IMG/VR virus record: IMGVR_UViG_3300032307_000957
From: an uncultured virus (IMG/VR IMGVR_UViG_3300032307_000957)
Taxonomy: Duplodnaviria > Heunggongvirae > Uroviricota > Caudoviricetes
Length of the DNA: 64,000 nt
Direction: 5' to 3' (one strand)
Part shown: positions 13,244 through 42,810 of the stretch, piece by piece
Numbering within the stretch: the first letter of the stretch is position 1
How the letters are laid out: each line of letters begins with the position of its first letter
Notes under the pieces: generated by a model
Databases searched by the model: none
The model's input: only the letters and a program-made list of their open reading frames with translations
Told to the model about the DNA's origin: nothing
Position numbers and translations under genes: made by a program

Positions 13244-13545
13244 TATATTATTTCCTTTAAGGTTTTTATTTCTTCTTTAGTTTTTTTTGAAATATCTTCA
13301 TTACATACTAATGAAAATATGTTTATTTTATTTATATTTTTTTTAATAAATTCTTCTGATAATTTTTGAGACAAAGAAATATTGATCCAATCAACTTTAT
13401 ATGAATATTTTTCTATAAATTCTTCTGATAGATTTTGGTAAGAAGAAATCCATCGCCAATCCCATTGGTCAAATAAATTAATATTATTTTCCAATTCTTT
13501 TTCCGAATATTTTTTACACATTAAATGCAAATTGTGCTTAGTCAT
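13243..13545 (-). CDS. Trp-repeat protein (KEII tail)
   Basis: Repeat motif; TLKEII. Confidence 0.85.
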   Translation of the reverse strand: MTKHNLHLMCKKYSEKELENNINLFDQWDWRWISSYQNLSEEFIEKYSYKVDWINISLSQKLSEEFIKKNINKINIFSLVCNEDISKKTKEEIKTLKEII

Positions 13546-14126
13546 ATAATTTCCTTTAAAGTTTCAATTTCTTTTTTAATTTTTTCTTTTAAATTTTCTG
13601 AAATATTTTTATTTTGCATTAAACAATCAATATTAATTTTATTAAAATATTTCATTATAAATTTTTCTGAAAGATTTTGATATCTAGAAATGAGATGCCA
13701 ATTAAGTTGATTGGAGTGTTTTTCTATAAACTTTTCTGATAATTTTTTATTACAAATAACAAAAGGAATATCCAATTTATTTAAATATTTTTCTATAAAT
13801 TTTTCAGATAAATTTTGATGCTTTGAAATCCAACCCCAATGAAGTTTATCTGAATGCTTCTCTATAAAATTTTCAGATAAATTTTGATATTGAGAAATAT
13901 AATACCAACTAATTTTATCTTGGTGTTTTTCAATAAATGATTCCGATAATTTTTGACTCCTTGAAATGTAGGCCCAATCAATTTTATCTAGATATTTCTC
14001 TATAAATGACTCTGATAATTTTTGATATGCAGAAATTAAAATCCAATCTTTTGAATCAAATAAATTAATATTTTTTTCTAATGTTTTCTCTGAATATTTT
14101 TTAGCAACCAGATCAATTTTATTCAT
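13542..14126 (-). CDS. Trp-repeat protein (KEII tail)
   Basis: About 6 repeats; TLKEII. Confidence 0.85.
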   Translation of the reverse strand: MNKIDLVAKKYSEKTLEKNINLFDSKDWILISAYQKLSESFIEKYLDKIDWAYISRSQKLSESFIEKHQDKISWYYISQYQNLSENFIEKHSDKLHWGWISKHQNLSEKFIEKYLNKLDIPFVICNKKLSEKFIEKHSNQLNWHLISRYQNLSEKFIMKYFNKINIDCLMQNKNISENLKEKIKKEIETLKEII

Positions 14127-25690: not shown

Positions 25691-26010
25691 TTTATTATAT
25701 CCATCATTGTTATCATTTTATCAATTTCTTTAATTATATCATCCACTTCCCCAACCAACACCTTAAATTCATCCCCAGGTTCCGATCTTAATTTAAATTC
25801 ATCCCGGGCCAATATTATCTCATCAAAATCCCGAACCTCGCTCTCCACCAATTCTCTCAAATTTATTTTTTTCCCGGAATATGCGTCCCCATATCCCCCT
25901 CCAATCACAATCTCCACATTATATACATTATTCAATTTTGATTCTTTTTCATTCATAATATATATGCTTATGTTGTCTTCCCATATATGCAGCAATATAT
26001 TCTTTATCAT
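25687..26010 (-). CDS. YNIL-family-like hypothetical protein (tail MMDIIK)
   Basis: NILL N-terminus; FKVLVGEVDDIIKEI C-terminus. Confidence 0.7.
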   Translation of the reverse strand: MIKNILLHIWEDNISIYIMNEKESKLNNVYNVEIVIGGGYGDAYSGKKINLRELVESEVRDFDEIILARDEFKLRSEPGDEFKVLVGEVDDIIKEIDKMITMMDIIK

Positions 26011-26306
26011 ATTATTTCTATTAATACTTTTAGCTCATTTTTCACATCTTCTGAAATATTTTCATTATCCATTAAACAACCAATATCAATTTTATTTATA
26101 TGTTTTTTTATAAATTTTTCGGATAAAGTTTGATTAATAGAAATATAATACCAAGAAACTTTATTTAAATGTTTTTCAATAAAATCTTCTGATAAAATTT
26201 GATAATAAGAAATAAAATTCTAATTAATTATGTCAAATAAATGAATATTAGCCTCCAACTCCTCTTCCGAATATTTGTTTTCAATTAAATCCAATTTATT
26301 TTTCAT
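26007..26306 (-). pseudogene. Trp-repeat gene with nonsense codon
   Basis: 100 codons MKNKLDLI...VLIEII; TAG at 26220-26222 where paralogs have Trp. Confidence 0.8.
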
Positions 26307-29300
26307 AATATTATTTCCATCAATCCTTTTATTTTTTTAATCTCCTCAATAATTCCCTTCATGCTTCCACTTAATATTCTAAAATCTTTTCCATTATCCC
26401 CATGAGTTATCACAATAGATTTTAATCCCCTTATATTTCCATCATGAGCCTTTATAACCTTTTCCATATCATGCCATCCTTTACGAACTCTATCAAAAAA
26501 TTTATCCCCTTTAATTTCGCTAATTCCCCAATTGCAATTATCCGTAGGATGAATAAATAATATCTCATCATTTGTTTTTTCATAAATTCCATTACCTTCC
26601 TTCCCCAAATAAATTAATACATTATATTTTTTCATATCACTTCCATTAATAATAATATCTCTTTTATCTCCCCAATTATCTCTTCCATACTTCCACTCAA
26701 TATCCTAAAACCTTTCTTATATCTATCTTTATATAATTCAATCTTTTTCTCAATTCCTTCCTTTTCTCCGCTGTTATAATGAATTATATCCCTTATGTTA
26801 AACCAATTAAGCTTCATATCATCCCAAAAGAATTCTCCATCAAGTTTATCAAAACCATAATTATCTCCAAATATATAATTTATTATCAAGATCTCTCTGT
26901 CCCTCTTTCTATAAAGACCATCCATTTCCTTACCAATATATATTAACACATTATATGTTTCTTTCATTTCAATCTCCCCAATATCCATCTTAAACTTCTG
27001 GGAATCCGAACCCCCTCAACCCATCCTTCCACAACCATTCTCTCTTTGTCAACCACATAACAACACTCCCCATAAACGCATCCCGCTATATGAACCAAAT
27101 CTCTCCTCAATCTCCCAATATCTTTCTCCCCCATCATATCTTCAAAATTATAATAATCGTCAAATAAATCCGGCATCCGCTCTTTCACCCTGTTAATCTT
27201 TTCTTCCCGATTCATATTATCTCCTTCAATAATAATATCCCTCTTATCTCCCCAATGATCTCTTCAATATCCCCAGATATTATTTTGTATTTAATAACAT
27301 CTCTAAATGATCCTATCTTTCTCTTATCTTCTTTCAATTCTTCCAAGCTTCTCTCCTCCAACTTAATCAACTCCCCCAATGAATTCTTTCCCCATAATGG
27401 ATCATTAAATTCTCCCGCTTCATCTAATTTATTAATCACAAATATTTTTGTATCAACATCTTTAATACTATCTAATATTAAATATATTCCACCATCATCT
27501 CTTAACTTCACTAATACATTATAATTATTCATATTATCTCCTGCAATAATAATATTTCTCGAATCTCCCCAATTATCTCTTCCATCTCCCCAGATATTAC
27601 TTTATATATTCCGTCATCCTCTTTAAAATGAAATTCATTATCAACTTCTCTCTTTCTCTTATCTTCTCTCAATTCTTCCAAATTCCGACCTTCCAATTTA
27701 ATCAATTCCTTCAATGATCCCCTTCCATATATAGAATCATTAAATTCCCCCAATTCATTCAATTCTTGGATCAACCAAATCTTTCCATAAAATTTTCCCA
27801 TATCTTCAAATCGATTCATAATCAAACAAACTTCCCCATTCATTCTTATCTTCACCAATATATTGTATTTCATATTATTTCAATTAAAGTTAATATTTCC
27901 CTTAATTCCCCCACAATATATTCTTCCCCACCAGAAAGCAACTTGTATCCTTCTTTTGTATAATAATTTAAATTCTTTAATAACCTTTCCTTGTCTTCAT
28001 AATTATGATAATTTAACATTTCCTTTATATCATGCCACCCTCCACGCATTCTCACTTTATCATAAAACCTCCCCGCTTCAATCTTGCTTATTCCATATTC
28101 AAATTTTCCATTTTTATTTCTCAATAATATCTCCTCATTGTCTTTATTAACCAAAATCAATACATCATAAACCTCAATCATATTATCTCCATTATTGTTA
28201 TTATTTCATTTATTTGATCTTTTATACTTTTAATGCTTCCGCTTATTATATTGTAACTACTCTCTTCCTCCATTATTTTCTTCTTTAATACCCTCAATTG
28301 TCCATTATGATTTATTAAAACCTTTTCTAAATCATACCATTTCTCTCTAACACCATCCCAAAACTTATCCCCCTCTATTCTTTCTATTCCAAATATACAC
28401 CCCTCTTCAGGATGTACCAATAACACTTCCTTGCCTATTTCCCCAATCTTAATCAAGATATTATATCTTTTCATATTATTTCCATCAAAGATAATATATT
28501 CCTTATTTCCTCAATAATATAATCTTCTCCACCGGAAAGCAATTTGTATTCTTTCTTCCTGTTATCTTCATCAATCAATTCCAAAAACCTTTCCTCTTTT
28601 CCATCATGAGAATTTAATATTTCTCTTAAGTCATGATAACTTCCCCACACCCTATCATATAATCTGTCCCCATCAATTTTGCTTATTCCTAATTTGCATT
28701 TTCCTTCTTCCGTTATAAATAATATCTCATCTGATTCCCTATCAATGAAAATTAATATATTATATCTTTTCATATTATCTCCCCCAATAATAATATATTC
28801 CCAATTTCCTCTATTATCTCCCCAATCTCTCCGCTCAGTATCTTGTACTTCCCATCCCTTTCCCCCACATAACTTTTCCTCTCTTTCACCTCCTCTTCCA
28901 ACTCCCAAAAACTTCTCTCCTCACCCACAATCAATTCTTTTAAAAATTCAATATCTATATTATCAATTATACTTGATCTTACATCGGTTCTGTAAAAGTT
29001 TTCTATAACATGCACCCTTTTATCATTCCTCACTTTAATTAATATGTTATATTTTCTCATATTATTTCTTTCAATAAGAATATTTCTTTTATTTCTTTAA
29101 TTATTTCTTCCTTTTTCCCCGAGATTATTTTGTATCGACCCCATGCTTCTCCTATCTCTTTTCTTCTCCACTCCATATCCTCTTCCAATTCTTCCAATCC
29201 TCTTTTCTCTCCCTCAATTATTCTTTTTAATTTTTCATCTATCAATGTATCTCCCGCCATGAATTCATCAAAATATAATTCATGAGAATATTTACCTCCA

Positions 29301-29741
29301 TCTCTTGTAATGTACATCTGCACATTATCATCATAACCATTGTTTTTATTATTATTTTTTATTCTAATTAATATATTGTATATCTTTTTCATAATACCGT
29401 TATCTTTCAAACTTTTTGTTTTTTTATTATTTTCAAACATTTTGAATATTTGAAGTTTATATTATTTCTCCCAATAAGAATATTTCTCGAATCTCCCCAA
29501 TTATCTCTTCCACGCTTCCAGATAAGATCTTATATTTTCCATTAATCTCTTTGCCTATTAATTTCCTCCACTCCATAGCCTCTTTCAATTCTTCCAAACT
29601 TCTTTTCTCTCCTTCAATTAATTCTTTTAATAAAAAATCATTTTCTTCATTATTTATATTTATTATATAATTTAAATTTTTCATAATAATTATTATGTCC
29701 TCTTTGCCCATAAAAATAAATATATTATATCTCTTTTCCAT
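26303..29741 (-). other. Tandem array of 10 YNIL-family paralogs (26303-26635, 26632-26967, 27212-27532, 27529-27873, 27870-28181, 28178-28474, 28471-28773, 28770-29060, 29057-29392, 29457-29741) plus one unrelated ORF (26964-27215)
   Basis: Shared Y[N/D][I/V]L[I/V] start and approximate [YF][KR][IL][LI]SG..EEIIxEI..I..L.EII end. Confidence 0.8.
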
Positions 29742-29769
29742 TTATATTTCTCCCCATTAAAATCCATCC

Positions 29770-29799
29770 ATTGTAACTCCATCCATTCCACAATGTCAA
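29770..29799 (-). promoter_or_regulatory. sigma70-type promoter heading the leftward array
   Basis: TTGACA-18nt-TACAAT on the minus strand upstream of 29741. Confidence 0.6.
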
Positions 29800-29883
29800 G
29801 TTCTTTCCTCCCTCCTAAATGATTGTAAAAAGAAATCAATATATGAACAAAGGAATATGTTATAATTTCAATTAATATAAGAT

Positions 29884-30058
29884 ATAGAATTATTTTTGCC
29901 ATAACTTATTAAATTTTGGTTATTATAAGATAATAACAGAGTCTGTATATTATATTGCTATAAGTGATTATTAAGATATGATTGTTTTTTAAGTTTTAAG
30001 TTTTTAATATAGAATTATAAGATGGAATTATAGAGTTATTTTTGCCATAAGTGATTAT
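29884..30058. repeat. AT-rich imperfect direct repeats
   Basis: ATAGA(A/G)TTATTTTTGCCATAA at 29884 and 30030; ATAAGTGATTAT twice. Confidence 0.6.
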
Positions 30059-30178
30059 ACGGGGGCCCGGCCGCTGCTCCCTCAACCATTCCAAACCTTT
30101 TCCAACTTTCCCCGCCCTATTCTTTTTGATAATCATGATCAATAAATAATACAATAAGAACGGAACAAAAGATAAAGC

Positions 30179-30616
30179 TTGCTTTTCTCTCCGATTCCTG
30201 TATCTTCTGAGGGTCGGAAGCGAAACGCGGAAGACAAGAGGGGTAACCCCTCCCGGTTCTCTAGTTCCTTTCAGTTATGAAGCATGAGCCTAAGGGGTCC
30301 GTTTGACCCGTTCGGAGCCGGTAAGGTGGTCCGATAGGCTAGAGGATAGGGGCCCGATTGGCCCGTCCGGAGTTAGTAAGACGGTCCGGGTTCTCGAAAC
30401 GATTCCTTGACAAGGGACCGAAAGCATGCTCTAAGTAACTGGTCGGGAGCGAAAAGCAACCGGAACAAGGGAGGGACAATCCTCCCGAGGTAAAAGGTTC
30501 TTTAACAATCCCTTATAATCTTCACTCCATGCCTTTTAATCCTTAATTGGAAAGGCAAGCTGTCCGAAAAAAAGACTGGACAAGGGGAGAGACCGGAGAT
30601 ATAAGAGGCGGGTCGG
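30179..30616 (+). promoter_or_regulatory. Three tandem promoter-like units with a shared GGTCGG start motif; boxA-like site
   Basis: TTGCTT-16-TATCTT, TTGACA-17-TCTAAG, TGGACA-17-TATAAG, each followed after 5 nt by GGTCGG; GTTCTTTAACAA at 30497. Confidence 0.55.
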
Positions 30617-31740
30617 AAAGGGTGAAACCTGAACGACCGGGATTGACAAGGTTCCGAATCATCATTAAAAGAATGTTGATTACCTAAGTTTCTTTTACAA
30701 TATGACCCTCATGCCCCTATAATGAAAAGACGCGAGTCTAATCAATAGGGCCCGGCTCCGGAAGGCCAGGTAATCTTACCAATTACCAGCCAATAATTCC
30801 CTAGCGTATGAGGTAAGCGGACCGAAGCTATCAGGGATAATCCCTAATAATTCCCCAGTCCCCCCATAAAGTAAGGTATCTTACTCGGGGCCGATACAGT
30901 CGGATAAGAAACCTAAACAGTTTCGAATGGTAGCCTCTCACGGCGCGGTGGAAGGAAGATAGAAAAGTGTAGGTTCGGCTTTCAAGGTTGCAGCGGGATA
31001 TGCCTTGAATTCTAATTAAACGACTCTTTTCCGGTTTGATGCCTGGATTAGTGACAAGTAACGGAGCGAGTAGTTTTAGAGGATTCTTTATTCGATACCG
31101 GATAAAGAATAGCTCGGAATGAAAGTGGATGAACGCACACTAACGTAACAGAAGGCTAGAAGGAAAGAGAAACGAAACGCTCGAAAGTTTCCCATGGTGC
31201 TGTAACTTGGCGGACGTAATATCCTAGCAGTTAACTAGGTGGTCATAAGTAAGAAACTTTCGAGGAGAAAAGATTAAGGTTGAGCGAGAAAGGAAACTTT
31301 CTCGTTCCCTTGAATCCAGAAAGAAAAAAAATAGTGAAGTGTTTTTTGTCTCATATCTTTCTGGATTCAAGGGAGCGTAAGCTCCACTTAAAAGAAAAAA
31401 AAGTAAAAGAAAAAAAGTAAAAGAAAAAAAAGTAAAAGTAAAAAACTCCCTACTAGTAAAAAAGTTCAAAAAAAGTATAGTAAAAAAGTTCAAAAGAGGT
31501 TGTGGGTAAACCTAGGAAACCCTCTCTATAACTTCAAAAGGTTTTAGTCTGAGTGTAATCATAACAATGTTCCGGGTTTTACCGGAAAGCTAAGGGATGA
31601 TAAATAAGCCTCTCGATAGGTTGTCCTATGCTAGAGGTTTCATGAGCGCAAGTCATGATGCGCATATTGAATAAATAATCATCCGATTACTGTATGGTTG
31701 CAAACAGAAAGTAATAAACTGATAATCCCGAGGGATTGCC
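30611..31740 (+). ncRNA. Candidate large structured non-coding RNA or leader (ends uncertain)
   Basis: No credible ORF; many stems including a perfect 19-bp and a perfect 12-bp inverted repeat. Confidence 0.45.
31391..31495 (+). repeat. A-rich tandem repeats
   Basis: AAAAGAAAAAAAGT about 3 times; TAGTAAAAAAGTTCAAAA twice. Confidence 0.6.
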
Positions 31741-31796
31741 CAAAGACGGAGAATCAGGTTACATTCAGACTAAAACTTTTCGAAAGGAAAAGAAAT

Positions 31797-32003
31797 ATGA
31801 AAACGAGCAAGTTTCAATACATGCGCAAGAGTGGTGAAGTGATCGAACAGAAAGCGGAAGCTACCATTATGCAAGAAGCTTTCGAAACCATCACGGAAAC
31901 TCAAGTCATGGAATATGACCCTTTCCAGAAAGAATCGAAAAGTCTGGAACATGTTGGAATGTTGGTTTCCGGAATCGAAATTCAGGAACCCCATTTCTTC
32001 TGA
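31797..32003 (+). CDS. Hypothetical protein
   Basis: ATG 31797 with AAAGGA upstream. Confidence 0.6.
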   Translation: MKTSKFQYMRKSGEVIEQKAEATIMQEAFETITETQVMEYDPFQKESKSLEHVGMLVSGIEIQEPHFF

Positions 32004-32051
32004 GAGTGTAAATAAGAATCTGATATAAACCTACACGGGAGAAAAGCAATC

Positions 32052-32255
32052 ATGAAGGTTTTCACTCTTGACAAGCTGAAGTTTTGGAGTAAAAAGAATC
32101 TCCTGAACGCAATCAAAAGGATGCAAGCTCAAGAATCTGATTACAATCAGGTTGCAATTCAAGATTTTTCTTACACTGGAAAAGTGGCAAGAAAGCGAGC
32201 AATCCAAGCAAGAAAGAATATGGTGGTTCTGGAAATTGCTCTTCAAGGAAAATAA
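32052..32255 (+). CDS. Hypothetical protein
   Basis: GGGAG RBS, ORF. Confidence 0.6.
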   Translation: MKVFTLDKLKFWSKKNLLNAIKRMQAQESDYNQVAIQDFSYTGKVARKRAIQARKNMVVLEIALQGK

Positions 32256-32263
32256 AGCTATAT

Positions 32264-32491
32264 ATGGAACAATCTAACTGGGATTGGAAAAAGGTTCAGA
32301 ATCTTATTGATTCGCCTCAAGTTTCCAGTAACCTACCTATCACCTACTCAATAAAAGTGAGTGATATTTACTGTCTGATTGTTCCGGATGAAAGCAAGCG
32401 GACGCGAGAAGATTATCGATCCTTTCAAGATGGTTTGTCGAAAGCTATAAAAGAAGGAAAGATAACAGGATTCAAAGTTCAAAAAGGGTAA
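32264..32491 (+). CDS. Short paralog of the 32625 winged-helix-like protein
   Basis: DIYCLIVPDESKRT...SFQ.GLS.A...GK.TGF shared. Confidence 0.7.
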   Translation: MEQSNWDWKKVQNLIDSPQVSSNLPITYSIKVSDIYCLIVPDESKRTREDYRSFQDGLSKAIKEGKITGFKVQKG

Positions 32492-32624
32492 TTGTTCTTT
32501 ATCTGTTCTTATGATATAAGGACAGAGATAAGCGCAATCACAATAAAAAGCGCTGGTTCGGTTGTTATGGAATGGTTCCATTCTAATTGAACCGTTTATG
32601 AAAACAATAATAGGAGTATATATT

Positions 32625-33143
32625 ATGGCACGTACGAGTCAGTGGAATTGGGAAAATGTTCAGGTAATCATCCAAGCAAACATGACCGCAAAGGGTCTCA
32701 CGTCCAAGGACATTTATTGTCTGGTCGTTCCGGATGAAAGCAAGCGGACGAAGGAGAATTATTCCTCCTTCCAGGTAGGCCTTTCGAATGCTCTCCGAGA
32801 CGGAAAGCTTACCGGATTCGAGACCAAGAAGGGTGTGGGCGGAGGGCTTTTCCGAGCCGGAGAAGTCCCGAAGTCCGAGAAGGGTTCCGATTTTCCGAGC
32901 TTCCCGACCAAGACTATCAAGGTCGGGGGAGTGGAAATGAAGATCAAGGCCGGAGGAGTATCTCTCAAGCATAACGGGGCTACTTTCTCTAAGCTCAGTC
33001 ATGCGGACGGATTCCGCAAGGCGGCCGAACTTCTGGTCCTGGACGGAGCCGAGGAAGCTCGGAGCTTGGAAGACTTGGTTGCCCTTGTCGAGGACAATAT
33101 GAGCAAGGTTCAGGCCGCGCTTTCGAGTCTCACGGCCGAGTAA
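32625..33143 (+). CDS. Winged-helix-like DNA-binding protein, GC-rich codons
   Basis: AGGAG RBS before ATG 32625; wing-like ETKKGVGGGLFR. Confidence 0.65.
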   Translation: MARTSQWNWENVQVIIQANMTAKGLTSKDIYCLVVPDESKRTKENYSSFQVGLSNALRDGKLTGFETKKGVGGGLFRAGEVPKSEKGSDFPSFPTKTIKVGGVEMKIKAGGVSLKHNGATFSKLSHADGFRKAAELLVLDGAEEARSLEDLVALVEDNMSKVQAALSSLTAE

Positions 33144-33215
33144 ACCCAAGTTCGAAAAACTGAATAAAAACGGAAACTTAAAAAATAGTTTCTTAACAAG
33201 TTAGGAAACGGAATT

Positions 33216-33282
33216 GGGGAATGTGGAAGCATTCCCCATTCGCTTCAGTGTATAACAATATTATATATTGAATCGAGTGAAA
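33216..33282 (+). repeat. Structured intergenic element, copy 1
   Basis: GGGAATG..CATTCCC hairpin plus long second hairpin; near-identical to 33692-33757. Confidence 0.75.
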
Positions 33283-33305
33283 TGGATTCCATACCAAAAT
33301 AAAAG

Positions 33306-33686
33306 GTGATAAAAATGGAAATGCAAAAACTTTTCAAGGCATTGTCTCAATTGTATGATGCCAGAAGTACGTTACATTCGGCTTTCACATGCAAGAGAAT
33401 CGAAAATAACTTTCGTGCGAAATATTCAAAGCAAGAAAGTTTTTATCACTTGATCAAAAAATATAAGAATAATGCGAAAAGTGCCAAAAACAATTTTGAT
33501 TGGCACATGAGCAACATTCAAAATATGATTGGTCAAGATGTATTCTCTTTCATGGAGAATTACAATCCGGCCGAAGTAAATAACAAAGACACAAGAGAAA
33601 AAATAATCGAACATATCCGTAACGTTCTGATGGATATTCGTGAATACATGACTCTTTGGGAAGCGGAAAACAATAAAGCTTTCTAA
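33306..33686 (+). CDS. Hypothetical protein
   Basis: ORF between the two repeat copies. Confidence 0.7.
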   Translation: MIKMEMQKLFKALSQLYDARSTLHSAFTCKRIENNFRAKYSKQESFYHLIKKYKNNAKSAKNNFDWHMSNIQNMIGQDVFSFMENYNPAEVNNKDTREKIIEHIRNVLMDIREYMTLWEAENNKAF

Positions 33687-33691
33687 AGTAA

Positions 33692-33757
33692 GGGAATGCA
33701 CAAGCATTCCCCATTCGCTTCAGCATATAACAAGATTATATATTGAATCGAGTGAAA
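33692..33757 (+). repeat. Structured intergenic element, copy 2
   Basis: Same two hairpins as copy 1. Confidence 0.75.
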
Positions 33758-33801
33758 AGAATTCCATTCTTCTAACAAAAACCTTTCAGGGTATAAGAAA
33801 A

Positions 33802-34176: not shown

Positions 34177-34222
34177 ATTCTGATAAATAAACAGATTCCA
34201 TTCTTTGTTTGGAAGGAAAAAT

Positions 34223-34441
34223 ATGGACAGAGAAATTGTTGAATGTTTATCTTGCGGACTGTATTATGGACGCAAGAAAGTTACCCATAATGATTATATA
34301 TTCCGAATATCTCTTTGTCCAGGTTGCGACCTTCCATTTATTGTGGGATATAAAGACTTGGACAGAAATAAGTATAACCTCTCCGAGTTGAGAGAAAAAG
34401 CTTATGGAGATATTAAGTTAAGCGGAAGGTGGGTTAGATAA
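34223..34441 (+). CDS. Zn-ribbon hypothetical protein
   Basis: CLSC...CPGC; AAGGA RBS. Confidence 0.6.
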   Translation: MDREIVECLSCGLYYGRKKVTHNDYIFRISLCPGCDLPFIVGYKDLDRNKYNLSELREKAYGDIKLSGRWVR

Positions 34442-34816: not shown

Positions 34817-35533
34817 GTGAATAAAGAGATAAAGAAACAAAGAGTTATAGATTACCGGAAAAAACTCAAGATAAAATGCGTTCAATATAAAGGTGGGAAA
34901 TGTCAATTGTGCGGTTATGATAAGTGCATGCGAGCACTTACATTTCATCATATAGATCCCACTCAAAAAGAATTCGGAATATCTTCCCGGTTAAGAAAGT
35001 GGGAGATAATAAAACAAGAGCTTGACAAGTGCCAGTTATTGTGTCAAAACTGTCATTGTGAAGTTCATGAATTAGAGTTCAATAAAGAATCCAATCTCCA
35101 ATTCTTAAAAGAAAAACGCATAGATAAAGAAAAAAACTCAACCGAAGTTAAATGTGAACAATGCGATAAGTTGTTCATAAAACCAAATTCAAAGTTAAAG
35201 AGGAGAAACTTTTGTTCGGTTGAATGTAAAAAGGGATTCTTTAATACATGGCCAAAAGATGAAGAGTTAATTGAACTATTTAAGTCATGCACAATAAAAG
35301 AAATAAGTGTATTGCTTGGTAAGGGAGAGAAACTTATTCTGAATAAAAGAACGGGATTCTTCAAAGATGGAAGATTAAAGAAGAAAAAGAAAGCTTTCAA
35401 TATAGTTTGGCCAGATGATAAAGAATTGGAAAACTTATTGAAAGAAAAGACTTATAAAGAAGTTTCGAAACATATAGGTGTATCGATTCATTCTTTGTTT
35501 AATAGAATAAAGAAAAGAAACATTCCGATTTAG
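34817..35533 (+). CDS. HNH endonuclease overlapping tRNA-Asn
   Basis: GGKCQLCGY, LTFHHIDP, ELDKCQLLCQNCH; C-terminal HTH-like segments. Confidence 0.85.
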   Translation: MNKEIKKQRVIDYRKKLKIKCVQYKGGKCQLCGYDKCMRALTFHHIDPTQKEFGISSRLRKWEIIKQELDKCQLLCQNCHCEVHELEFNKESNLQFLKEKRIDKEKNSTEVKCEQCDKLFIKPNSKLKRRNFCSVECKKGFFNTWPKDEELIELFKSCTIKEISVLLGKGEKLILNKRTGFFKDGRLKKKKKAFNIVWPDDKELENLLKEKTYKEVSKHIGVSIHSLFNRIKKRNIPI

Positions 35534-36416: not shown

Positions 36417-36429
36417 TATTCTTTCATAA

Positions 36430-36473
36430 GTGTAGTGGATTTTTTATAGGTTCGACTCCTATATTACACGCCA
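36430..36473 (+). ncRNA. tRNA minihelix-like element (acceptor stem plus T arm only)
   Basis: GTGTAGT-GGATTTTTT-ATAGG-TTCGACT-CCTAT-ATTACAC-G-CCA. Confidence 0.6.
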
Positions 36474-36553
36474 TGTAAAAGATAACTTTAGGTGTATCTT
36501 AAATATCATCCTAGAGCTTTTACAGTTTTCCCTAAAATGGGTTAAGACATTTT

Positions 36554-36640
36554 GAGGGAATAATTGGGGGAGTACCGGCCCTGACTTCTAATCAGGTGTA
36601 CCGTAATTGGATTATGTGGGTTCGAATCCCTCCTTCCTCG
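36554..36640 (+). tRNA. Atypical tRNA-Arg(UCU) with long variable region
   Basis: CCTGA-CTTCTAA-TCAGG arm, GGGTTCGAATCCC T arm, irregular D arm. Confidence 0.6.
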
Positions 36641-42406: not shown

Positions 42407-42810
42407 GGGCCCTTGGCGGAATTGGCAGACGCGACGGACTTCTAGGGTAAGAATGAGTAATTTTCATATACTTACCTAGCGGAGCTTCTCAATAGAAATA
42501 TTGAAGATAGAACTGGGAGAATTGCTGGGAAACCCTTAAGATATAGTTACCACAACATAATTGGAAACAATAAGTGTGAAGGTTTAAGAAAACTATATAT
42601 TGGGCAATCAGCAGCCGAGCCTCTTTGAAATGAGGAAGGTTCAGAGACTACTTGAGAATACAAGAATAAGTACCCGGCACCTTAACATATAAATATGAAG
42701 GTGATGATATAGTCCAGACCACAAATCATAAAATGATGTTTAAGAAATTAAATGTGGTAAGAAAATCCGTTGCCTTTACAGGCGTCCCGGTTCGACCCCG
42801 GGAGGGCCCA
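42407..42810 (+). tRNA. tRNA-Leu(UAA) split by a group I intron (exons 42407-42441 and 42762-42810)
   Basis: Joined exons give ACGGA-CTTAAAA-TCCGT and acceptor GGGCCCT/AGGGCCC-A. Confidence 0.9.
42442..42761 (+). mobile_element. Group I intron, 320 nt, no ORF
   Basis: Core AATTGCTGGGAAA, AATCAGCAG, GTTCAGAGACTA, GATATAGTCC; exon ends in U, intron ends in G. Confidence 0.9.

Follow-up and report, generated by a model that had tools for sequence, protein, structure and literature searches.

Phage T7 has the A1-A3 promoters and a boxA (the boxA being unconfirmed by our literature search), and its leader is a few hundred bases long. The leaders of bacterial rRNA operons combine a boxB-boxA-boxC array with Nus factors, and processing stems frame the mature RNA. 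GOLLD, which is often found near tRNA islands, and ROOL are typified by covariation-supported pseudoknots and a protein-free nanocage. The early precursor of T7, of ~7000 nt, is described in a passage of PMC3867540 as containing five RNase III sites, and the same source gives ~11 bp as the minimal and 22 bp as the ideal substrate of the enzyme. In PMC4807359 it is reported that boxA, together with NusB/NusG, lifts the Rho repression exerted via a long non-coding 5' UTR. Orphan ncRNAs of the phages ICP1, K and PA5oct are described, in passages of PMC7567579, PMC9241854 and PMC7318152, as demonstrated by RNA-seq. In the PeSLs of T4-type phages, a sigma70 promoter is joined to a short terminator stem, and they occur in many copies.

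The window considered here, that is the whole stretch of DNA that was analysed, is the 64-kb start of a 74.7-kb virus record with an estimated completeness of 32%, whose gene content includes NAD salvage, thymidylate synthase and HNH genes, tRNAs and a group I intron. For positions 30611-31740 an original prediction had proposed a highly structured RNA of ~1.1 kb. On balance, our analysis favors reading the stretch as a long untranslated leader of an early operon, which would be protected by antitermination, undergo RNase III-type processing and frame an uncatalogued RNA of ~200 nt. Its layout would seem to work most like the T7 early region, the rRNA leaders and the SPO1 takeover module, and the features of T7- or rrn-type leaders found in it are the promoter consensus matches at 30126, 30643 and 30694, a boxA-like element at 30497-30508 and stems of 22 and 28 bp. 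As in T7, several host-type promoter-like sites are followed by long stems before and between small first genes; unlike in T7, the leader would span 1.1-1.6 kb, the stem encloses a 196-nt branched fold rather than a short loop, sequence similarity is absent and cleavage is predicted from the stems alone. The likeness to the rRNA leader lies in a boxA-like 12-mer situated 3' of hairpins and promoters, a long untranslated RNA and a stem framing a folded RNA, but the framed RNA is here only ~200 nt, belongs to no known family, and the boxA lies 5' of the best promoter. The SPO1 module, as cited in PMC3896407, is alike in that strong host promoters are followed by a cluster of small first genes, together with RNase III and terminator features; it differs in that no terminal repeat is shown here (the contig being 32% complete), no protein homology was found, and SPO1 has no known kilobase-sized structured leader.

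Genes switch direction at this locus, running leftward from 29741 and rightward from 31797, and between the two arms the GC content climbs from ~0.2 to 0.45-0.57, with the minimum of the cumulative GC skew located there as well. The segment 29903-31223 comprises 1321 nt without an ORF of at least 60 aa, the longest such gap of the 74.7-kb contig, the second being 501. This bears out the earlier remark that the span has no credible ORF: the sole longer one (31224-31493, minus strand, 89 aa) runs antisense to the A tract and is down to 51 aa in the relative L077. We infer the early status of the region from its promoters, its small genes without assigned role and its higher GC. Over the left-arm paralog array at 26000-30000 the GC skew falls as low as -0.75, an extreme strand asymmetry. 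The first tRNA, a tRNA-Asn at 35524, lies 3.8 kb downstream of the stretch with several genes between, and its 5' end is overlapped by the HNH endonuclease gene 34817-35533. Further along, the tRNA at 36566-36640 was detected with an Rfam model (34.7 bits) and missed by ARAGORN, and a truncated tRNA-like T-arm stretch lies immediately upstream of it at ~36428-36474. The group I intron at 42464-42725 (Rfam, 65 bits) occupies a gap without long ORFs and is possibly inside a tRNA gene. A dense tRNA cluster was also seen in another genome (G001, L058:13111-14241), where a 129-nt tRNA match at 13523-13651 may contain an insertion.

Table 1. Features of the locus and the first rightward genes, in window coordinates
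Feature	Coordinates	Strand	Remarks
Sigma70-like promoter facing the left arm of small genes, TTGACA-18-TACAAT	29770-29799	-	consensus match only
GC-rich palindromic spot	30060-30073		GC jump from ~0.2 to 0.45-0.55; minimum of cumulative GC skew
P0, promoter-like, TTGATA-18-TACAAT, 10/12	30126-30155	+	consensus match only
Hairpin-rich non-coding segment upstream of the predicted span	30200-30640	+	z -3.4 on +, -3.1 on -
P1, promoter-like (doubtful), perfect -35, poor -10	30407-30435	+	read from sequence, absent from promoter scans
rRNA-type boxA-like element	30497-30508	+	only exact pattern match in the window
P2, promoter-like, TTGACA-17-TAAAAG	30643-30671	+	promoter scan; within the predicted span
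P3, promoter-like, TTTACA-18-TATAAT, 11/12	30694-30723	+	scan; within the predicted span; predicted start ~30730
Non-coding core, few strain differences, weak fold	30730-31300	+	has 7-bp, 9-bp and 12-bp helices
Stem TTCAAGG/CCTTGAA	30981 / 31003	+	present in sequence
Stem ATTCTTTAT/ATAAAGAAT	31083 / 31102	+	present in sequence
Long-range stem CTCGAAAGTTTC/GAAACTTTCGAG	31180 / 31253	+	present in sequence
Three abutting hairpins	31282-31385	+	z -8.7
GAAA-capped hairpin	31285	+	present in sequence
Perfect 19-bp repeat	31306-31324 / 31356-31374	+	22 bp if one G-U is counted
GGAGC-GTAA-GCTCC hairpin	31372	+	present in sequence
A-rich repeat linker	31389-31496	+	A tracts repeating every 10-15 nt
Weak hairpin	31496-31530		z -1.5; T runs follow on the minus strand
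Clamped module, ~250 nt (252)	31533-31784	+	28-bp closing stem, 196-nt multibranched fold inside
First rightward gene, 68 aa	31797-32003	+	AGGAAAAG at 31785-31792, immediately 3' of the closing stem
Two long intergenic hairpins before gene 32625	32500-32600	+	z -4.7
Double-hairpin cassette, copy 1	33217-33292	+	z -5.5; intergenic, 76 nt, before gene 33306
Double-hairpin cassette, copy 2	33692-33767	+	z -5.9; 89% identical, before gene 33802

The predicted span had been described as lying downstream of tandem promoters, but P2 and P3 sit inside it. P1 and P2 have TTGACAAGGnnCCGAA in common, and GACAAG occurs 5 times against 0.3 expected. Three helices at 30208-30353 that converge on the P3 spacer were considered and dismissed, helix counts there being at shuffle level. 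The boxA-like 12-mer was found with an rRNA-type boxA pattern, a match to which 12 of 3000 shuffles of 30050-31800 also contain, and is identical in 11 of 12 positions to the rrnB boxA as given by a primer in PMC2176067. Given that it lies 3' of P0 (30126) and of the doubtful P1 (30407) and 5' of P2 and P3, only transcripts initiated at P0 or P1 would bear it. A scan for intrinsic-type terminators called none on the plus strand in 29700-33400; on the minus strand, the weak hairpin at 31496-31530 could possibly form an antisense terminator, without a call by the scan.

Every stem listed by the original prediction was found in the sequence, and 30611-31600 as a whole folds with a z of -4.7, which none of 20 shuffles equaled. 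This stem richness is, however, uneven. On the plus strand 30730-31170 (z +0.6) and 31170-31300 (-0.1) fold at chance level, whereas 31170-31390 and 31533-31784 exceed shuffles with z of -6.0 and -7.4, respectively, and the inner 31561-31757 folded by itself still gives -4.3. Thus, of the continuous ~1.1-kb RNA that had been envisaged, the 3' parts stand as structured while the span does not fold as one uniform RNA, and its 3' limit of 31740 bisects the 28-bp stem that ends at 31784. The two long stems of 31303-31377 (22 bp) and 31533-31784 (28 bp) both score 53, as compared to 38 for the next stem of the 74.7-kb contig and to a mean of 29 and a maximum of 43 for the top stems of 300 shuffles. 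In the weakly folding 30730-31300, helices of 7 and 8 bp show no excess (7 against 7.9 and 3 against 2.1 in shuffles), but there are 3 helices of at least 9 bp against 0.5 expected, a number seen in 1 of 60 shuffles. The 12-bp helix pairs 31180-31191 with 31253-31264 and is purely Watson-Crick, like the 19-bp repeat.

The block at 31282-31385 is composed of an 11-bp hairpin with a GAAA loop, a 19-22-bp stem with a variable loop and a 5-bp GTAA hairpin. In L077 both arms of the 19-bp repeat are unchanged, the loop varies and still forms an inner helix, and the A-rich linker that follows is 31 nt shorter. Group II introns are typified by a domain V with the catalytic triad and a 2-nt bulge, by domains D1-D4, which have models of their own, and by a 5' GUGYG. 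A candidate domain V at 31282-31307 attained 16 bits with a plastid D5 model against a cut-off of 61 (E 4.8), and given this score and a hairpin without a bulge we rejected it; the other group II families gave no match at E <= 10.

Comparisons of the stretch were made with strain-level relatives. L077, which covers 31104-32184, is the only real match among 13 metagenome pattern hits. Further contigs came from 13 metagenomic runs, among which no RNA dataset is listed; those containing most of the stretch are labeled aquatic, freshwater or plain metagenome. Of the 13, 8 were examined, all as DNA contigs, and 7 of the 8 furnished usable contigs, X11 being empty. Against X3, 30705-31330 differs in 5 of 626 nt and the downstream sequence in 50 of 1327 (p 1e-4, or ~0.002 once 20 changes in the clamped module, an assumed number, are removed). 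The X3 changes T30630A and G30704A weaken helices upstream. This low divergence is one of the grounds on which 30730-31390 might be regarded as a stand-alone large ornate ncRNA of ~600-650 nt, extending from P3 to the triple hairpin, with the 3' module as a second RNA; it would then function in the manner of GOLLD and ROOL, or of the abundant ncRNAs known from ICP1, phage K and PA5oct. P3, with 11 of 12 consensus positions, lies immediately 5' of the core, and in pseudoknotted RNAs the minimum-free-energy signal can be weak. The likeness to GOLLD and ROOL extends to the setting, a large phage region devoid of genes and rich in stems, in an arm that also carries tRNA genes, and the size and the variable linker recall both families as presented in PMC12286853. 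The stretch differs from the two in a 5' half that folds at chance, in a distance of 3.8 kb to the nearest tRNA, in a linker dividing modules that strains separate, and in lacking broad conservation. Two PA5oct ncRNAs are placed, in part of PMC7318152, within the early terminal repeat, and the orphan ncRNAs of ICP1 (~800 nt), phage K (lnc001/lnc002) and PA5oct (ncRNA001/002) likewise occupy a kilobase gene-free gap of a large lytic phage without a family match, although those are known by RNA-seq and the present stretch from sequence alone. Several findings nevertheless make us regard the stand-alone RNA as a rather doubtful alternative. The excess of conservation in the core is missing in L077 (3 of 221 against 7 of 340, p 0.75), the strain relatives showed no compensatory change there, folding of 30730-31170 is at shuffle level, and no terminator was called at 31390. 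Furthermore, the stretch matches neither the GOLLD nor the ROOL model. Known ornate RNAs are conserved far past the strain level, whereas neither three distant clade members nor the collection scans yielded a homolog. It should be noted that this alternative is compatible with the leader reading if the core is excised as a stable RNA.

The family searches agree with the original prediction in having no match to GOLLD or ROOL. The GOLLD model (RF02032) gave nothing at gathering score or at E <= 10, and a GOLLD search of G000 scored 13 candidates with 0 matches (controls in 5 of 14 genomes, none above the cut-off); the ROOL model (RF03087) had no match in the contig in a search run without a positive control. 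The Rfam check suggested at the outset covered the window, L077 and, at E <= 10, the segment 29700-32200; it yielded no catalogued family, only sub-threshold generic hairpin matches. Searches with blastn against phages and plasmids returned a single 33-nt match at E 0.5 and nothing else, and DNA pattern scans gave either 0 hits or hits of which 0 of 6, 1 of 13 (L077), 0 of 9 and 0 of 39 were real. Four proteins had no tblastn match in phages. Of five locus scans with the neighboring proteins, four found no relative and the other recovered 3 distant phages (42-51% amino acid identity), which have no DNA similarity to the stretch or to the 32625 gene. We found no literature on this phage or motif; the RNA lists in the supplements of phage ncRNA surveys could include the element.

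A 22-nt segment of the core, 30887-30908, is identical to L128:2997-3018, where it lies exactly antisense to codons 2-9 of a conserved protein gene, which adjoins a capsid-like gene in small phages. The match recurs in 15 of 15 loci of one family, the other 14 of which have near-identical flanks, and similarity ends at 22 nt; Rfam searches on 12 of the 15 loci gave no match. X3 and X4 differ from the window at 30897. Given the protein-antisense position, the 22-nt limit and the near-identical flanks, we counted the loci as a single match, which is probably due to chance.

The clamped module at 31533-31784, whose closing stem of 28 bp includes 3 G-U pairs and 1 mismatch, keeps its pairing between strains. 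Between the window and L077, 72 of its 75 pairs are the same, 2 have changed on both sides, 1 has gone from G-U to G-C (31553/31764) and 0 are broken. Only 5 of the 38 differing columns are paired, as against 150 of 257 columns overall, but the consensus structure was derived from this same two-row alignment and the changes are clustered, so that the p value of this contrast is overstated. The compensatory changes in L077 are neighbors, 31619/31626 going from G-C to C-G and 31620/31625 from G-C to A-U. Low-depth single contigs show two of the changes separately, X10 having that at 31620/31625 by itself and X13 that at 31764. L077, X3, X12 and X13 have a different sequence in the tip, 31724-31751, on a stem that is retained, and L077 refolds into the same branches as the window; T31659G breaks one terminal pair of a fold predicted from the window only. 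The covariation check recommended for the RNA yielded pair-preserving changes between strains, but it draws on a single full relative and on a few contigs of low depth, and with two rows the shuffle control of the covariation tool (128 of 500) is uninformative. Template switching in DNA palindromes can likewise yield paired changes. Taken with the G-U pairs, the pair-preserving strain changes support structure at the level of RNA, on the plus strand, for the 3' parts, and the sequence evidence argues that 31533-31784 is a real structured RNA module outside the catalogued families.

This module is small and has sharp borders. Its right edge, 31784, directly adjoins the ribosome-binding site of the first gene, and on its left X4 carries an unrelated 185 nt between 31528 and 31533, while X6, X10, X12 and X13 run into unlike sequence at 31530-31533. 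The loose end of X13 resembles the end of the gene 34205-34441, suggesting that some strains may have a gene at the module border. As strains insert DNA directly 5' of 31533, the module is separable from what precedes it. It is single-copy in the contig, and a covariance model built from two sequences over 31589-31760 recovered, in 843 kb, nothing beyond those two. A TTG-start extension of the first gene from 31698, open in both the window and L077, was rejected as coding since X4 and X12 lack one nucleotide at 31792-31796, which puts it out of frame. The gene itself (31797) has 5 substitutions in L077 with an identical protein, which has no relative beyond its own cluster.

Comparable folds recur between the first genes. 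In L077 a second clamped module, of ~165 nt (L077:897-1059, 27-bp clamp, z -6.1), lies between genes 1 and 2, with a 4-nt repeat on its flanks and arms unlike those of the main module; the window is without it at 32024, and X4, X6 and X9 break at 32025-32028. Three of the four downstream intergenic stretches tested fold with z of -4.7 to -5.9. No sigma70 promoter was called in the 33217 and 33692 cassettes. Short repeats such as AACCTTTCA..GG.TAAGAAAATG also occur 5' of the genes 33802 and 34484. The 75-aa gene 32264-32491 is paralogous to the N-terminal portion of the 172-aa, GC-rich gene 32625-33143 (111 nt, 75% identical); only 3 outside relatives (61-66% identical to the 32625 protein) and no family match were found. 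The ~165-nt module, flanked by a 4-nt repeat and present in L077 but not in the window, the 185 nt inserted where the main module starts and the repeated cassettes, both the 76-nt one in the window and a hairpin cassette in the relative G003, raise the question of whether early genes are shuffled by the clamped modules, acting as small cassettes of a mobile or recombination type (MITE-like or PeSL-like), with their folds resulting from terminal inverted repeats. PeSLs of T4-type phages, which mediate such shuffling according to a passage of PMC2839356, are comparable as intergenic stem-loop cassettes in variable regions, at points of gene gain and loss. However, the stems here are longer, mostly single-copy and without a called promoter. 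PeSL membership was rejected for both kinds of element, the main module being single-copy and the two-copy cassette lacking a called promoter. As 31533-31784 has arms unlike those of the L077 module, these arms contain G-U wobbles and the inner helices are preserved too, we consider cassettes a very improbable explanation of the folds.

G003 (406 kb, 95% complete, 42% identity in one marker) offers a more distant comparison. It has no DNA similarity to the stretch, but its matching arm starts below a gene-poor stretch of ~2.4 kb, the flanking genes of which are not clearly divergent. In 400 kb scanned, 6 stems score at least 40, and all of them map to the matching arm, on its sense strand, with 3-8 G-U pairs each. 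The gene-poor stretch itself (8600-6201) folds patchily, with 3 of 16 windows at z <= -3, and a boxA was not found in the matching region. The counterpart of the pyrimidine-rich flank is at L024:8050-8460, and a long hairpin cassette rich in G-U pairs occurs twice (L024:4413-4468 and 1890-1945), at gene starts in the matching arm.

The similar flank and gene-poor stretch of G003, together with the skew minimum and strand switch beside a GC-rich palindromic spot, could also point to a role of the DNA itself, as a replication origin or a genome end or packaging site, in which the palindromes would form cruciforms or be bound by proteins, and the A tracts, with their 10-15-nt repeat, would be bent or unwinding DNA. 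The purely Watson-Crick 12- and 19-bp repeats would suit this, as would the about equal folding of the two strands (-6.0 on plus and -7.5 on minus for 31170-31390; -7.4 and -6.5 for 31533-31784). We think such a role quite unlikely, for the plus strand is favored by G-U pairs (the non-Watson-Crick positions of the long stems are 4 G-U on plus and 1 A-C that becomes G-U on minus) and by GNRA loops (4 of 18 tetraloops on plus, 0 of 14 on minus). In addition, a multibranched insert preserved between strains is unexpected for a cruciform, the A-tract length varies by 31 nt, similar stems lie between genes, and the skew tracks gene direction. Contig breaks and lower depth left of ~30000 in X3 and X4 were not counted toward a genome end.

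Under the leader reading, host sigma70 polymerase would initiate at P0-P3, and transcripts from P0 or P1 would load Nus factors at boxA, shielding 1.3-1.6 kb of untranslated RNA from Rho. With no rightward intrinsic terminator called, the polymerase would be expected to read into gene 31797. Cutting of the untranslated start of the early message by a host enzyme is likely: RNase III would cleave the 22- and 28-bp stems, leaving a protected 5' end beside the ribosome-binding site of gene 31797, a free insert of ~200 nt and an upstream piece of ~600 nt. The enzyme would be that of the host, given that no RNase III gene was found in 4 phage records (control detected in 8 of 14). The branched fold of the insert would be under selection, most likely as a stabilizing or protein-binding RNA. 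Processing accounts neither for the low divergence of 30705-31330 from X3 nor for the length of the leader.

Leaders with processing stems are already known from T7-like and SPO1-like phages; what would be new is a leader of 1.1-1.6 kb and a 28-bp stem around a branched RNA conserved between strains, and if the leader merely processes and stabilizes, the addition is a modest one. More speculatively, and with decidedly less confidence than in the leader as such, the first transcript may resemble a pre-rRNA, being a boxA-protected ncRNA precursor that is cut at its stems to release two RNAs of new families, one ornate and ~600 nt long, the other branched and ~200 nt long. If this were true, strains would gain and lose extra stem-clamped RNAs in the manner of genes, and the earliest products of the phage would be RNA decoys aimed at RNases or Nus factors of the host or at its RNA-sensing defenses. 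A leader with clamped modules that vary between strains suggests that structured RNAs may be among the first-wave products of large phages.
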